From a virus (Duplodnaviria; Heunggongvirae; Uroviricota; Caudoviricetes): a stretch of 5,976 nucleotides of DNA. The stretch lies in the IMG/VR virus record IMGVR_UViG_2713896787_000006, one strand, 5' to 3'. Under the pieces are notes generated by a model. The model saw only the letters and a program-made list of their open reading frames with translations, searched no databases and was not told the origin of the DNA. Numbering within the stretch: the first letter of the stretch is position 1; the number at the start of each line of letters is the position of its first letter. Shown here in pieces: positions 1,438-5,976 of the stretch. A program made the position numbers and the translations under genes.

Positions 1438-1626
1438 TTATCCAGCCGGTATTTCGTTATTCAGGTTCAGCGATACTTTTTTTAACGGGAGGCATTCACC
1501 GGGGATTTTTTGTTCGTCCCTTACCTGAATGCAGGATGACTTACTGTCATAAATTCCGGTAATCACATTTTGTGGCTCACCCGTTATAAGAAAAACGGTC
1601 ATCACCAGTGCAAATGCTGAAGTCAC
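1438..1626 (-). CDS. Small hypothetical early protein (about 62 aa with GTG start; 54 aa if ATG at 1602 is used), YdaE-like position
   Basis: Track ORF 1438..1626. GTG at 1626-1624 overlaps the TGA stop of the upstream gene (GTGA, translational coupling) and has GGAG 4-5 nt upstream; the alternative ATG at 1602 has a weak SD. Product not recognised. Confidence 0.4.
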   Translation of the reverse strand: MTSAFALVMTVFLITGEPQNVITGIYDSKSSCIQVRDEQKIPGECLPLKKVSLNLNNEIPAG

Positions 1627-1811
1627 TGCTGTTCTCCGATAATACCAAGTTCAAGAAGGGCAATTCTGGAAAGTATGGAATTATCATTGAGAAGATAAGG
1701 TTCATATTTTCTCATCTTAATGGCATCTTCCGTAAACTCCCGGTTACTGAGCAGAACACCAATATCAAAACAACCTTCAGACGTATTAACGTTTGGTAAT
1801 AACGTTTCCAT
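1623..1811 (-). CDS. Small hypothetical early protein (61 aa, METLLPNVNTSEGCFDIGVLL...), Kil-like position
   Basis: ATG at 1811-1809 preceded by GAGGA with a 7-nt spacer; stop TGA at 1625-1623. The track's longer version (to 1916) begins with GTG and lacks an RBS. The Kil assignment is positional only. Confidence 0.5.
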   Translation of the reverse strand: METLLPNVNTSEGCFDIGVLLSNREFTEDAIKMRKYEPYLLNDNSILSRIALLELGIIGEQQ

Positions 1812-1828
1812 TATCGCGTCCTCAACAA

Positions 1829-1976
1829 TGAATTTTGTGATGCGGTGCCTGGTGCCTCCAGGTGACGTTAACCAGTTAACAATTAACGCCGGATACAGAG
1901 AATCCACCCATAACACTGTTTTTGGTTTTAACTGTTCCGCGTGCGCTCAGCCGCATTCACCGCATCACAAAATTCA
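1829..1976. repeat. Perfect 19-bp inverted repeat pair (TGAATTTTGTGATGCGGTG at 1829-1847; CACCGCATCACAAAATTCA at 1958-1976) flanking a 110-bp segment rich in internal symmetry
   Basis: Both arms checked base by base. Interior contains GTTAACCAGTTAAC, CCTGGTGCCTCCAGG and tandem CCGCAT(T)CAC. Left arm ends 17 nt upstream of the start codon of the 1623..1811 gene. Confidence 0.9.
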
Positions 1977-2063
1977 CTTTAAAAAGGGCGGCAGAGCAGT
2001 CACGGAGTAAAACTGATACCGCCAAACGTCACCAGAAAATTGATAACAGAGGGCGTTGCAGCG

Positions 2064-2100
2064 GGGTTGTCACTTAAGCGTATGGTCAACCTGACAACCC
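2064..2100. repeat. Stem-loop: 9-bp perfect stem GGGTTGTCA / TGACAACCC with 19-nt loop, within a GC-rich hairpin cluster
   Basis: Direct inspection. Further hairpins at 2112-2130 (CGGGG/CCCCG), 2143-2158 (CCGCG/CGCGG) and 2246-2261 (CCCTGA/TCAGGG, 4-nt loop). No convincing ORF on either strand between 1917 and 2363. Confidence 0.7.
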
Positions 2101-2375
2101 GGTGTCCTCAACGGGGAAGGAATAACCCCGCCATACTTACCGCCGCGCCATTTCGCGGAGTGCCACAACCGGAAGCGCACGTTCGAAGAAATCTAACGAC
2201 AAGCCTTCTAAGGGAAAGAGCTTCGCCGTACGCTTTCGCGTTATGCCCTGACTTTTCAGGGAAATATCCTTTCAGTAAACTGTCAGTACCGGATTCTTAT
2301 CCGTGTCCGGCGCACGACCACACGTGACAGCGTGTTGGTCTCCATTTTTAACCCAGAACCTCAATGGAGGATAAA

Positions 2376-2585
2376 ATGCCAAACAAAAAAAGAAATCCGC
2401 TTATTGAAAAACAGATTGAATGCCTGGTAAATCAACTCAGGCAATCAGGGTTATTAAAAACTCATTCAGAGTTGAGGCTCACAGAATCAGCATTCGACGA
2501 TAAATTAAATAATGTCCTTTATAATGGCATTATTGATTTTAATCGTTCTGTTGGTCGCCGCGGCCCTGCTGGTGTTTCCTTATAA
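2376..2585 (+). CDS. Small hypothetical protein (69 aa, MPNKKRNPLIEKQIECLVNQLRQSGLL...), sieB-like position but much shorter
   Basis: ATG at 2376 with strong SD GGAGG (2366-2370) and 5-nt spacer; the track start at 2364 lacks an SD. Convergent with the 216-aa gene (stops abut at 2585/2586). The C-terminal 20 aa (GIIDFNRSVGRRGPAGVSL) look frame-shifted relative to a hydrophobic +1 frame. Confidence 0.5.
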   Translation: MPNKKRNPLIEKQIECLVNQLRQSGLLKTHSELRLTESAFDDKLNNVLYNGIIDFNRSVGRRGPAGVSL

Positions 2586-2622
2586 TTACCAGTCAATCCA
2601 GAGTGGACCGTGTTCAGCGTAA
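2512..2622 (+). CDS. Candidate small hydrophobic ORF (36 aa, MSFIMALLILIVLLVAAALLVFPYNYQSIQSGPCSA) in the +1 frame of the 69-aa gene; possibly the true C-terminus after a frameshift
   Basis: 19 consecutive hydrophobic residues (one predicted TM helix) encoded at 2527-2583; ATG at 2512 and 2524, no SD; stop TAA at 2620-2622. Below the track's size cut-off. Overlaps the last 12 codons of the convergent 216-aa gene. Confidence 0.25.
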   Translation: MSFIMALLILIVLLVAAALLVFPYNYQSIQSGPCSA

Positions 2623-3236
2623 ATATAACTGTACACATCCAGATTATATTTGTGGTCTGTTAAGAACAGGCCGCAAATACATGCCGAAGCTTCCAGTGCA
2701 GCGGCTCTGTTACTGAATAACCATGTAGCAACATTCCAGCGTTTTTCTGCATCCCAGTCTTTATCAAGGCCTGATACCATGAAGAAACCGTTAGTGTTGC
2801 CATCAAATAATTCTGTTTCCAAATTTTTAAGCAATGCCTGATGGACTCTTGCCAGGTATTCCGCCGGAATTTCGCCACGAATTCTGATGAGATTGTCATA
2901 AACAAACATGTTCCCCGCATATGGCGATTTTTCTTTCTTGTTTTTTAAACCAGCATCATGAGCAAACTGATCAATTTCTTCTTCCGTTGGTTTCGTATTG
3001 ATGTTTTGCGCTGTCGTTTCTGCAATTTTATTTGCCACACTCTCTGAGTCGTGTTTATTTATAGACGCACAGAAATACAATCCGGTAAACGCATCGCGCA
3101 CATTACGAGCCATATTATCAGTGTCTTTTTTCGTTACCGATTCCAATTCAAGTTCGTTCAGACGATGACGAAGTGTGTGTGCTGCAATCTCCTGGATTGA
3201 AGGAGGTAAATCTTTAAATTCCATCGTCAACCTCAT
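2586..3236 (-). CDS. Hypothetical protein, 216 aa, second gene of the PL-proximal pair
   Basis: Track ORF with ATG at 3236-3234 overlapping the upstream TGA (TGATG, one-nucleotide overlap, translational coupling). Diverse protein-like composition. No family recognised by eye. Confidence 0.75.
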   Translation of the reverse strand: MRLTMEFKDLPPSIQEIAAHTLRHRLNELELESVTKKDTDNMARNVRDAFTGLYFCASINKHDSESVANKIAETTAQNINTKPTEEEIDQFAHDAGLKNKKEKSPYAGNMFVYDNLIRIRGEIPAEYLARVHQALLKNLETELFDGNTNGFFMVSGLDKDWDAEKRWNVATWLFSNRAAALEASACICGLFLTDHKYNLDVYSYIYAEHGPLWIDW

Positions 3237-3469
3237 CAGTCGGAGTTTCTTGCTAACCAGCGATGCGCGCCAGCTTCGGTTTTAAACGTTTTACTTTTGG
3301 TATACGTCATCGCGGTAAACGTACCGTCCTGGTTGGGAAACACGCCGCATACCAGAGATTCGCTGTTGCCAAGATCGATAGTATCCATGCTGACCTCATT
3401 TCCCCTTAACGCCGGGGTAGCGGAACAAAAACCTGCTGCATAGTTATTAAAGTTGAACCCTGCCGTCAT
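3236..3469 (-). CDS. Hypothetical small protein, 77 aa, first gene downstream of the PL-like promoter
   Basis: ATG at 3469-3467 with GAGG about 12 nt upstream; stop TGA at 3238-3236 overlapping the start of the 216-aa gene. Not arginine-rich at the N-terminus, so not an obvious N-type antiterminator. Confidence 0.6.
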   Translation of the reverse strand: MTAGFNFNNYAAGFCSATPALRGNEVSMDTIDLGNSESLVCGVFPNQDGTFTAMTYTKSKTFKTEAGAHRWLARNSD

Positions 3470-3570: not shown

Positions 3571-3612
3571 AGGATACCCATGGGTATTTAAAAAGTAAAT
3601 ACCCATGGGTAA
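3571..3612 (-). promoter_or_regulatory. PL-like leftward promoter with two palindromic operator sites (OL1 TACCCATGGGTA 3575-3586; OL2 TACCCATGGGTA 3600-3611)
   Basis: Two copies of the perfect palindrome TACCCATGGGTA spaced 25 bp centre to centre (the first is a perfect 14-mer ATACCCATGGGTAT). On the minus strand: -35 TTTACT (3599-3594), 17-nt spacer, -10 TATCCT (3576-3571). OL1 overlaps the spacer and -10; OL2 abuts the -35. Confidence 0.55.
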
Positions 3613-3653
3613 TTTTTTGATGTGTCTTAACTGGTGACTGGTTGTTTGGTGAG

Positions 3654-4073
3654 TTATGATGCGTTTTGTGCTTTCTTTTTACGGATTTCTTCGTAGATCA
3701 TATTGTAATACTGTTTTTTCTCTTCAAGAGTTTTTAATAAGTTATCCGCTTCACTTTCTGGCAGTTCGTCTAAGAGATCTAAAAAAATACGTTGTCGTGG
3801 CGTTAGAACCCTTGTTTCATAATTGGAGGCTGTGTTCGTTGATGATGAAACGATACCATCCATCCATCCCCGGGGTAACCCAAAGGACTCTTCTATAATC
3901 TCCACCATATCATCAGCGATCCGTTTTTTTCCTTTTTTCCCCTCTGGGTACAACATTCTTGATACATAAGAAGGCTCGCGACCGATCTTTCTGGCCACGT
4001 TAACCGCTTTACCATCGCATTTCTCATCACGAATTTTGATGAGTTGTTGTCGTCTAAATTCATATTTGTCCAT
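3654..4073 (-). CDS. Prophage repressor-like HTH DNA-binding protein (139 aa), CI-like position, too short for a LexA/S24 autocleavage domain
   Basis: ATG at 4073-4071 (MDKYEFRRQQLIKIRDE...). Probable HTH around GKAVNVARKIGREPSYVSRML. Divergent from the Cro-like gene, with operators at both ends. The track's TTG start at 4115 adds an implausible Cys-rich extension. Positional analogue of RacR/CI; I do not recognise the sequence itself. Confidence 0.75.
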   Translation of the reverse strand: MDKYEFRRQQLIKIRDEKCDGKAVNVARKIGREPSYVSRMLYPEGKKGKKRIADDMVEIIEESFGLPRGWMDGIVSSSTNTASNYETRVLTPRQRIFLDLLDELPESEADNLLKTLEEKKQYYNMIYEEIRKKKAQNAS

Positions 4074-4079
4074 AGGTAA

Positions 4080-4148
4080 ATAATAGATGCGATTACCGCA
4101 AGGTAAACAACCCAAGGGTATTGACTTTTGTTTACCTGTGGGTATTCT
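4080..4148. promoter_or_regulatory. Divergent immunity control region: three operator-like TACC-N4-GGTA sites (4094-4105, 4109-4120 imperfect, 4133-4144), PR-like promoter, and a possible PRM-like promoter for leaderless repressor mRNA
   Basis: PR: -35 TTGACT (4121-4126), 16-nt spacer, -10 TATTCT (4143-4148); site 4133-4144 overlaps the spacer and -10, site 4109-4120 abuts the -35. This mirrors PL. Minus strand: TATTAT at 4085-4080 lies 6 nt upstream of the repressor ATG, with a weak -35. SD AAGGAG at 4162-4167 precedes the Cro-like ATG at 4173. Confidence 0.5.
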
Positions 4149-4172: not shown

Positions 4173-4454
4173 ATGGAAGAATTAAGAATATTTCTCAATT
4201 CTCTTTCGTCAGATGAACAGCGTATGTTTGCATGTGAGTGTGGTACTAGCATCGGTTATCTAAGAAAGGCATTGAGTAAAGGTCAAATGTTAGGGGCATC
4301 GTTATGTGTCCTTATTGAGCGAGCCAGTAATGGTGAAGTTACACGTCAGCAACTAAGGCCTTTTGATTGGATGAATATTTGGCCCGAGCTGGAAGATACC
4401 AAAACGTTAACACAACCACTTACTAGGAGCTTGATTCATGAAAATCAAGCATGA
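4173..4454 (+). CDS. ydaS: Cro-like small HTH regulator, YdaS-family-like (93 aa)
   Basis: Strong SD AAGGAG with 5-nt spacer; first gene rightward of the operators. Translation contains FACECGTSIGYLRKALSKG ... LCVLIERASNGEVTRQQLRPFDW, matching my recollection of the YdaS/Cro-like signature (IERA-x-x-GEV ... LRP-x-DW). Symbol assigned from that recollection and synteny, not from a search. Confidence 0.75.
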   Translation: MEELRIFLNSLSSDEQRMFACECGTSIGYLRKALSKGQMLGASLCVLIERASNGEVTRQQLRPFDWMNIWPELEDTKTLTQPLTRSLIHENQA

Positions 4455-4863
4455 ACACATCCGCATGGCGATGAATGCCTGGGCGCGTCCTGATGGCGAA
4501 AAAGTTCCAGCAGCTGGAATAACCCAGGCTTATTTTGAGTTGGGTATGACGTTTCCTGAACTGTATGACGACAGCCATCCGGAAGCCCTGGCTCGCAATA
4601 CCCAGAAAATTTTCCGCTGGGTAGAGAAAGACACCCCTGATGCAGTTGAAAAAATTCAGGCGTTGTTACCAGCGATCGAAAAGGCAATGCCACCTTTGCT
4701 GGTGGCCAGAATGCGCAGCCACAGTTCAGCTTATTTTCGGGAGCTGGTGGAGACGCGGGAGCGACTGGTGAGAGACGCTGATGATTTTGTCGCAGTGGCA
4801 ATCGCCGGTTTCAATCAGATGAACCGTGGTGGCCCGGCAGGAAATGCTGTGGCAGTTCATTGA
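4438..4863 (+). CDS. ydaT: YdaT-family protein (141 aa), CII-like position downstream of the Cro-like gene
   Basis: Starts MKIKHEHI..., contains ...QKIFRWVEKDTPDAVEKIQALLPAIEKA... and ends ...AVH, consistent with my recollection of Rac YdaT. AGGAG 8 nt upstream; overlaps the ydaS-like stop by 17 nt. Confidence 0.8.
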   Translation: MKIKHEHIRMAMNAWARPDGEKVPAAGITQAYFELGMTFPELYDDSHPEALARNTQKIFRWVEKDTPDAVEKIQALLPAIEKAMPPLLVARMRSHSSAYFRELVETRERLVRDADDFVAVAIAGFNQMNRGGPAGNAVAVH

Positions 4864-4934: not shown

Positions 4935-5976
4935 ATGGCTAACGCCTGGCTCAGATTATGGCATGACATGCCAAATGACCCTAAGTGGCGAACAATTGCC
5001 AGGGTGTCAGGGCAGCCAATTGCAACAGTGATGGCAGTGTATATCCACCTCCTGGTGAGCGCGTCACGAAATGTCACGCGAGGTCACATTGATGTCACGA
5101 CAGAAGATTTGGCAAGTGCGCTCGACGTGACAGAAGAGGTAATTGATTCAATTTTGCAGACGATGCAGGGGCGGGTACTTGATGGTGATTTAATCACTGG
5201 ATGGGAAAAACGCCAGGTGCTGAAAGAGGACAACGGCAATATTTCGCAAACCGCAAAATCTCCGGCAGAGCGCAAGAGGGCGCAGCGAGAGAGGGAAAGA
5301 AAGCGGGAACAAAATGGCGATTGTCACGGCGCGTCACGAAATGTCACGCACATGTCACGACGAGTCACGACAGATAAAGATACAGATAAAGATACAGATC
5401 AAGAAGATCAAAACACTATGGTCCATGGCGTAAAAAACGCCACGAACCAGGCAGGGGATGTTCAGACCGTCAATCCTGGTCAGCCAGCAGGCACGACACC
5501 GGAAGCCGATTCAGCGTATGCGCTGAAAGCCGATTCGGGCGCTGTGCAGCAGGTGATGACCGCAAGGCAGGAGCAATCACACCAACTTCAGCAGCCTGAA
5601 GCCGATTCCGCCATTCAGCGGGAAGCCGATCGGGTAGTCCCGGAAAACACCGGGCAGCCTGTGGGACGAGTGGATTATCCGGATGTGTTCGAACAGGTCT
5701 GGCGGGAATACCCGTTGCGTGCTGGGGCAAACCCGAAGAAATCCGCTTTCAGTGCCTGGAAGGCCAGATTACGCGAGGGGGTGCCACCAGAGGCCATACT
5801 GGATGGTGTGAGGCGTTACGCAAGATACCTGGCGGCTACCGGGAAAACGGGAACGGAATTTGTTCAGCGAGCGACGACGTTTTTTGGGCCGGACCGGAAT
5901 TTTGAAAACCCCTGGTTGCTCCCGGTAAGCGGCACGAACAACCAGCGTTGTGTGAATCATATTTCTGAACCGGATA
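4935..5976 (+). CDS. Partial CDS (3' end beyond window): phage replication initiator (O-like), ori iterons embedded, C-terminal region resembling the conserved phage replication-protein C-terminus (FEQVWREYP...KKSAFSAWKARL)
   Basis: ATG at 4935 with SD GAGGTGA; stop-free frame to the window end (347 codons: MANAWLRLWHDMPNDPKWRTIARVSGQPIATVMAVYIHLL...). Absent from the track because it has no in-window stop. All antisense track ORFs here are shorter and junk-like. Confidence 0.8.
   Translation, partial: MANAWLRLWHDMPNDPKWRTIARVSGQPIATVMAVYIHLLVSASRNVTRGHIDVTTEDLASALDVTEEVIDSILQTMQGRVLDGDLITGWEKRQVLKEDNGNISQTAKSPAERKRAQRERERKREQNGDCHGASRNVTHMSRRVTTDKDTDKDTDQEDQNTMVHGVKNATNQAGDVQTVNPGQPAGTTPEADSAYALKADSGAVQQVMTARQEQSHQLQQPEADSAIQREADRVVPENTGQPVGRVDYPDVFEQVWREYPLRAGANPKKSAFSAWKARLREGVPPEAILDGVRRYARYLAATGKTGTEFVQRATTFFGPDRNFENPWLLPVSGTNNQRCVNHISEPD
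5059..5100 (+). repeat. Iteron cluster 1: four (T)GTCACG repeats at 5063, 5073, 5083 (GTCACA) and 5094, 10-11 bp apart, plus an inverted copy CGTGAC at 5126-5131
   Basis: Direct inspection; a 21-bp block GCGCGTCACGAAATGTCACGC (5059-5079) is identical to 5329-5349. Confidence 0.55.
5321..5405 (+). repeat. Iteron cluster 2 (five GTCACG repeats at 5323, 5333, 5343, 5354, 5364) followed by three tandem 12-bp A-rich repeats ACAGATAAAGAT (5370-5405); candidate replication origin
   Basis: Direct inspection; repeats in helical phase (10-11 bp); resembles the lambda arrangement of iterons plus an AT-rich region inside gene O. The repeats encode ASRNVT... and TDKDTDKDTDQED in the protein. Confidence 0.5.

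Follow-up and report, generated by a model that had tools for sequence, protein, structure and literature searches.

What reads the five related palindromes that flank the 139-aa repressor gene of the virus record IMGVR_UViG_2713896787_000006 (Caudoviricetes), and what do they control? The whole stretch of DNA analysed, 5,976 nt long, is called the window here. Its repressor gene (3654–4073, minus strand) and a cro-like gene (4173–4454, plus strand) are divergent with 99 bp between them, as in a lambda-type switch, and the repressor belongs to phrog_5736, annotated as a transcriptional regulator (E = 4.7e-70). The palindromes share a TACC-N4-GGTA core. Judged from sequence, they are very probably (about 0.85) the operators of this prophage repressor, arranged as a lambda-type switch with operators at a leftward (OL) and a rightward (OR) promoter.

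A first-pass annotation of the window had placed five sites in this region, and each was found again at its position. Two of them, OL1 (3575–3586) and OL2 (3600–3611), are perfect palindromes with the same sequence, TACCCATGGGTA, separated by 25 bp from centre to centre; the extended form of OL1, ATACCCATGGGTAT, spans 3574–3587. The other three lie between the divergent genes: an OR3-like site, TACCGCAAGGTA (4094–4105), which has the weakest half-sites, an OR2-like site, AACCCAAGGGTA (4109–4120), and an OR1-like site, TACCTGTGGGTA (4133–4144), with centre-to-centre distances of 15 bp between the first two and 24 bp between the last two. When TACCNNNNGGTA was searched with at most one mismatch, the window gave 8 matches against 1.13 expected (standard deviation 1.09), a number reached by none of 200 dinucleotide shuffles. 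The four exact matches of the window to TACC-N4-GGTA all fall inside the two intergenic regions flanking the repressor gene, and about 64 kb of the identical prophage of strain O111:H- 11128 (L001 and L044) contain no exact site but these four. A further perfect half-site, TTTACC, is found on the repressor strand at 4062–4073, just before the ATG, with a poor partner half (GACA); it shows no conservation in more distant homologues and may be a chance occurrence.

The sites are in register with three predicted promoters. The consensus scan used scores the hexamers out of 12, and a score of 8/12 lies under its listing threshold. The predicted rightward promoter PR (4121–4148, plus strand; TTGACT at 4121–4126, a 16-nt spacer and TATTCT at 4143–4148) scores 9/12, has its predicted start at about 4155 and would serve the cro-like and cII-like genes. 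The predicted leftward promoter PL (3571–3599, minus strand) consists of TTTACT at 3599–3594, a 17-nt spacer and TATCCT at 3576–3571, with a start at about 3564, and would serve the operon of the ydfA-like gene, DicF and dicB. The predicted repressor promoter PRM (4080–4107, minus strand; TTTACC at 4107–4102, 16 nt and TATTAT at 4085–4080) also scores 9/12. The mirrored geometry of PL and PR described in the first-pass annotation holds: at each promoter, one site adjoins the −35 hexamer (3600–3611 at PL, 4109–4120 at PR) and the other extends over the spacer into the −10 hexamer (3575–3586 and 4133–4144, respectively). The operator arm thereby provides the TA of TATTCT at PR and the TA(T) of TATCCT at PL. 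The leftward promoter has two such sites, not three.

The three OR-like sites together overlap both divergent promoters, PRM and PR. The two −35 hexamers flank the OR2-like site, whose centre is at about −40.5 relative to the predicted start of PR, and the OR3-like site covers the −35 hexamer and spacer of PRM. Measured from the predicted PRM start, the centres of the OR3-, OR2- and OR1-like sites are at −26.5, −41.5 and −65.5. PRM and the separate roles of the three OR sites are predictions added here to those of the first-pass annotation.

To follow the palindrome beyond the window, one genome per species was scanned, which yielded 41 loci encoding the DNA-binding domain of the repressor; with the locus of the lambdoid phage mEp043 (L043) and the window, 43 regions were compared. 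The loci belong to Enterobacterales, Aeromonas, Xanthomonas, Stenotrophomonas, Neisseria and Burkholderiales, and most contain a homologous divergent cro-like gene. The same palindrome recurs in the same layout. Counted from the ATG of the repressor gene, TACC-N4-GGTA is found at approximately −73, −48 and −33 in 30 of the 43 regions; those of the window lie at −71, −47 and −32, and the outer two fall at −73/−72 and −33/−32 in homologues. The 220 kb of loci contain 121 exact sites where 3.4 are expected from composition, and 62 of the 121 lie between −80 and −20, an interval that makes up 1.2% of the sequence. A downstream pair of sites 24–26 bp apart, including an equivalent of OL1, is present in 34 regions, usually in the form GGTA/TTGACa...TACC-N4-GGTA/tnnT: one site is followed immediately by the −35 hexamer (TTGAC-), and the last TA of the other opens the −10 hexamer (TAnnnT). 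The register of the predicted PL agrees with this form, and that of PR is kept in the 30 regions with the upstream sites. The fixed offsets and the downstream pair support the earlier proposal that the 139-aa repressor acts through an OL/OR-type switch.

The design of PRM is conserved as well. In the window the gap between the −10 hexamer and the A of the ATG (4073) is 6 nt long and there is no Shine-Dalgarno sequence; in all 30 regions the spacer is 16–18 nt and the gap to the ATG 5–7 nt, which leaves a Shine-Dalgarno sequence no room. A leaderless repressor mRNA is predicted from this design, with a start in the window at about 4073. The pooled sites of the family give the consensus tTACCY-NN-RGGTAa. 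In the middle site the half facing PRM is always degenerate across the family; constraint at positions 5 and 8 is lowest in the site nearest the ATG. Among relatives with 85–93% protein identity, TACC and GGTA are unchanged; the central 4 bp and the neighbouring bases vary.

The pair of sites at PL could also be a hairpin and not a target for protein, acting as an intrinsic terminator between the repressor gene and the leftward operon or as one that halts antisense transcription. Positions 3575–3611 form a perfect 16-bp stem with a 5-nt loop (folding energy about −24 to −26 kcal/mol) that is followed by a T-run on the plus strand; the pair begins only 43 bp past the repressor stop codon, and no other terminator is evident there. 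In the close Escherichia coli (E. coli) relatives L046 and L047 (at about 2015–2055), the centres have changed to CACA and TGTG with the stem still perfect, and a Salmonella copy keeps the stem through one G-U pair. However, each arm of the hairpin is itself a palindrome with the motif of the OR sites, any two copies of the palindrome largely pair, the tail on the repressor strand, TCCTTCCT, has no T-run, and the −35 and −10 hexamers are conserved in register with the PL sites. Across 36 distinct pairs, complementarity at the 4 central positions was 2.25 within loci and 2.24 between loci (permutation p = 0.53). Selection of the hairpin across the family is ruled out by this comparison, the stem being kept in the three closest relatives only, and a hairpin in place of operators is considered improbable. 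A secondary role of the OL pair as a terminator or roadblock in the sub-lineage is retained as a tentative idea, because of the 43-bp gap and because read-through into dicBF would harm.

The protein that would bind the operators appears to be a hybrid, composed of a DNA-binding domain of the mEp043 type and a DicA-type tail, since its N-terminus matches mEp043 cI and its C-terminus matches DicA. Residues 1–75 make up a helix-turn-helix domain, which is followed by a disordered linker and a DicA-like helical C-terminal region. The AlphaFold model has a mean predicted local distance difference test score (pLDDT) of 85.9, with values above 90 in the helix-turn-helix domain, disorder at linker residues 77–87 and two C-terminal helices. 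The N-terminus contains the motifs REPSYVSRMLY...KKRIADDM...LPRGWMDG of what is here named the ‘MDKYE’ domain. It is 76% identical to the corresponding domain of mEp043 cI, with an identical recognition helix, and the first ~75 residues are 50–85% identical to the N-termini of 221–242-aa repressors with an S24 peptidase (LexA/CI-type) from Salmonella, Edwardsiella, Yersinia, Pantoea, Klebsiella and others. An exhaustive search with the domain returned 637 representative clusters at E ≤ 0.001; these range from 72 to ~400 aa in length, and the domain is thus joined to many different C-termini.

The 139-aa protein itself has no S24 domain, in contrast to many homologues with the same N-terminus, and no AG dipeptide in its translation, as is the case for short repressors of the DicA/Gifsy type. 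Its C-terminal 46 residues (89–134) are 33% identical to DicA (E = 1e-7), but the N-terminal domains of the two proteins fail to align, and the homology does not extend over the whole repressor. A Pfam search found no family match, that to PF00717 (S24 peptidase) included; NF007257 gave a partial match of 24.1 bits against a cut-off of 101, and a sequence search of the PDB gave nothing usable (best E = 0.075). In the fold comparison, the best match was the repressor of Salmonella phage SPC32H (5d50), with a marginal E of 1.2e-3, followed by generic helix-turn-helix domains of XRE and C proteins. The analysis proposes a function and a DNA target for this domain, which has no Pfam family or solved structure. 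The operator DNA named as partner for a dimer model of the DNA-binding domain is TTACCCATGGGTAA. Three E. coli copies of the repressor (P0013, P0016 and P0019) are frameshifted; they start with MNLDDNNSSKFVM and regain the normal frame at about residue 50 (near KKRIADDM) or later. Their alternative frame corresponds to 3893–4063 of the window on the minus strand, and such copies would be without the DNA-binding helix.

Whether this protein or the Cro-like one reads the palindromes was weighed from the exceptional loci. If the Cro-like YdaS-type protein were the sole reader, the 139-aa protein would bind elsewhere. The cro-like gene does accompany the tripartite OR in nearly all loci, the helix-turn-helix region of its product (CGTSIGYLRKA) is conserved, and YdaS of CP-933P footprints the intergenic region (PMC8630535). 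Four Klebsiella loci (L003, L006–L008) nevertheless encode the repressor domain and carry sites both upstream and downstream of the gene without any cro-like gene, which indicates that the motif goes with the repressor domain, not with Cro. In addition, the loci without sites have an altered recognition helix in the repressor: SYVNRIFY, ASISHMLY and ATISHLLL in L022, L038 and L042, respectively, instead of SYVSRMLY. The three sites and the promoter hexamers also explain every conserved intergenic base, and a second set of operators has no room. Targets of Cro alone were rejected on the strength of the Klebsiella loci, and this explanation is held to be very unlikely.

The four Klebsiella loci, which are of the S24 type, differ in arrangement from the window: upstream they have only the −73 and −33 sites and no middle site, together with the downstream pair, and the −33 site of L003 failed the one-mismatch search. 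They are possibly domesticated. The two Advenella loci (L038 and L042), which are without TACC-N4-GGTA, carry inverted repeats with half-sites 12 bp apart at ~40–60 bp upstream of the ATG. The repeat of L038 is ATACCGC-N8-GCGGTAT, and that of L042 is similar, imperfect and ends in GGTG; these may represent a variant with a different dimer geometry.

With the repressor as the reader of the sites, the switch would operate as follows. A repressor dimer would read each TACC half-site by its conserved helix-turn-helix, in which SYVSRMLY is the recognition helix. Binding at OR1 and OR2 would block PR, and binding at OL1 and OL2 would block PL, so that the cro-like, cII-like and replication genes and the leftward operon with the cell-division inhibitors DicF and DicB would be silenced. 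Repression of PR by the repressor is well supported at the level of sequence. OR2, at about −42 from PRM, would be positioned to activate PRM as lambda CI does, and the weaker OR3, which overlaps PRM, may allow shut-off at high repressor concentration; the arrangement suggests both of these functions. The divergent YdaS-type protein probably takes the role of Cro at the same sites. Induction is expected to proceed through an antirepressor and not through RecA-stimulated self-cleavage, because the C-terminus is DicA-like and the S24 peptidase is absent. The DicA-type C-terminus in place of S24 sets the window apart and should make its repressor RecA-insensitive and antirepressor-dependent. The annotations of L001 and L044 include no antirepressor; no search aimed specifically at Rem- or GfoA-like proteins was made. 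The position of DicF and dicB downstream of the predicted PL implies that the repressor would control two cell-division inhibitors, like DicA in Qin.

The window corresponds to the immunity region that a defective lambdoid prophage carries in strains of E. coli that make Shiga toxin (STEC). Over the 1.1 kb compared, it is 100% identical to prophages of such strains, for example O111:H- 11128, in which the prophage adjoins tRNA-Ser/mtfA; among its genes are nleC, which encodes an effector, and head and tail genes like those of lambda. Of 5426 complete E. coli genomes, 822 contain 80% or more of the 1.1-kb immunity segment. A megablast search against the phage collection gave flanking similarity only, with the immunity DNA itself matched in no phage. 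A run of N at 1201–1289 of the window breaks the exonuclease gene where O111:H- 11128 has an IS1203 insertion.

Several observations weigh against an operator function in a working switch. The OR2–OR3 distance is 15 bp from centre to centre compared with 23 bp in lambda, and simultaneous occupancy may fail. The consensus match of PL is weak (8/12) and is unlisted by the promoter scan. In most loci the repressor domain is accompanied by the cro-like gene, and only the four Klebsiella loci separate the contributions of the two. Literature searches with motif variants, the protein, the PHROG identifier and peptides returned nothing relevant. Finally, the prophage of O111:H- 11128 is defective: its integrase is truncated, IS1203 splits the exonuclease gene, and IS66 has been inserted. 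This decay, together with the frameshifted repressor copies of some E. coli, could mean that the sites are inactive relics and that the switch is dead in this genome. Inactive sites are hard to reconcile with the intact reading frames of the repressor, cro-like and cII-like genes, with the wide distribution of the immunity segment, or with half-sites that stay invariant while their neighbours vary; dicB and DicF would also need to be silenced even in a defective prophage, as by DicA in Qin. A dead switch is accordingly judged a slim prospect, and the palindromes are still best read as operators of the repressor.

The neighbouring genes fit into two divergent groups. To the left, on the minus strand, the window encodes an exonuclease, DUF1482, dicB (1623–1811), the small RNA DicF (1986–2037; Rfam RF00039, 76.7 bits), a 216-aa open reading frame (2586–3236) and a DUF1391/ydfA-like gene (3236–3469). 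The operon from 1623 to 3469 is placed under predicted PL control on the basis of gene content and synteny with Qin. To the right, on the plus strand, the cro-like gene of the YdaS type encodes 93 aa and is assigned to phrog_35, with a PF15943 score of 25.9 bits (below the cut-off of 30). It is followed by a cII-like gene of the YdaT family (4438–4863; PF06254, 39.6 bits against a cut-off of 21) and, from 4935, by a gene for a replication initiator. A YdaT-type operator, TTGATTcatgaaAATCAA, is matched perfectly at just one place in the window, 4431–4448, from the end of the cro-like gene through the ATG of the ydaT-like gene. Within the replication initiator gene, GTCACG repeats spaced ~10 bp apart form two clusters (5063–5100 and 5323–5369, plus strand); GTCACG-N4-GTCACG has 5 matches where 0.03 are expected, and the clusters look like origin iterons.

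The comparison does not bear out one part of the first-pass annotation, namely that the palindrome gives this repressor an immunity of its own. Both the TACC/GGTA core and the SYVSRMLY helix are family-wide, being shared by mEp043 cI and many S24-type repressors, and both occur in Xanthomonas and Neisseria loci. Cross-repression within the family is predicted from the shared core and helix, and with it cross-talk and cross-immunity among prophages whose modes of induction differ. A function and a precise DNA target are also proposed for a protein annotated as ‘hypothetical’ in a segment common in E. coli.

A more speculative extension, which is possible but clearly less likely than the operator assignment, is that the ‘MDKYE’ domain, the TACC-N4-GGTA operators and the YdaS-type cro gene form a portable immunity cassette with near-fixed DNA specificity in Gamma- and Betaproteobacteria, of which the repressor C-terminus alone is exchanged. 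It is equally tentative that the exchanged C-termini (S24 peptidase, DicA-like helices and others) alter induction and not the targets of repression. If this were true, unrelated phages and defective prophages would cross-repress; the prophage would be immune to mEp043, and mEp043 cI would silence its dicB and DicF. The recombination junction would then be located within the repressor gene, at the linker, and the OL pair of the sub-lineage might double as a terminator or roadblock against entry of the repressor transcript into dicBF.

A bistable switch of the lambda type is, as a general mechanism, textbook knowledge. In lambda, the centre of OR2 is near −42 relative to PRM, OR1 and OR2 are 24 bp apart, the OR2–OR3 distance is 23 bp, the operator is 17 bp long, and the cI mRNA is leaderless. 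The window resembles lambda in its divergent repressor and cro genes ~100 bp apart, in the three palindromic operators over PR and PRM with OR1 and OR2 24 bp apart and the middle site near −42, in the predicted absence of a leader from the repressor mRNA, and in the presence of operators at the leftward promoter. Unlike lambda, it uses a 12–14-bp TACC-N4-GGTA operator, has two OL sites instead of three and a 15-bp OR2–OR3 distance, and places OL and OR only ~520 bp apart. Its DNA-binding domain has no detectable similarity to that of lambda CI, the S24 peptidase is absent, and the leftward operon is without an N gene and carries DicF and dicB. The window thus appears to be a well-supported example of the lambda-type switch family, with an operator and a DNA-binding domain that seem not to have been described before.

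The closest experimentally studied system is PaaR2/YdaS/YdaT of CP-933P from E. coli O157:H7, which shares the gene plan with a YdaS-type Cro and a YdaT-type CII (PMC8630535, PMC9986795). Its intergenic region measures 97 bp compared with 99 bp in the window, the paaR2 mRNA is leaderless by rapid amplification of cDNA ends (5'-RACE), and operators are present at OR (PR/PRM) and PL (PMC8630535). The main YdaT operator has been footprinted as TTGATT-N6-AATCAA at the ydaS-ydaT junction (PMC9986795), and the site at 4431–4448 of the window is identical to it in form and position. In contrast, the operators of PaaR2 follow a GTTTAGTAA-type consensus (PMC8630535), whereas the repeats of the window are TACC-N4-GGTA. 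The window is also without the paaA2-parE2 toxin-antitoxin genes, and its cro-like protein falls under the Pfam YdaS cut-off.

By gene context, the closest system is DicA/DicC of Qin. The Qin order dicC-dicA-ydfA-...-dicF-dicB-ydfD is matched in the window by the cro-like gene, the repressor gene, the ydfA-like gene, DicF and dicB, and DicA is likewise a short repressor without S24 that resembles the C-terminal 46 residues of the window protein. DicA is relieved by the antirepressor Rem and not by RecA, and the Gifsy repressors are likewise controlled by antirepressors (10.1101/2023.04.14.536235). The N-terminal domain and operators of the window are, however, unrelated to those of DicA, and its cro-like gene is of the YdaS type and not dicC.

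By sequence, the closest relative is mEp043 cI, for which a literature search returned no operator study. In addition to the similar DNA-binding domain, mEp043 has OR sites at −72/−47/−32, an OL pair 25 bp apart and a cro gene of the same family. It differs from the window in that its cI is a 228-aa protein with an S24 peptidase, presumably cleavable through RecA, and in that it carries lambda-type cII and N where the window has YdaT and dicBF.

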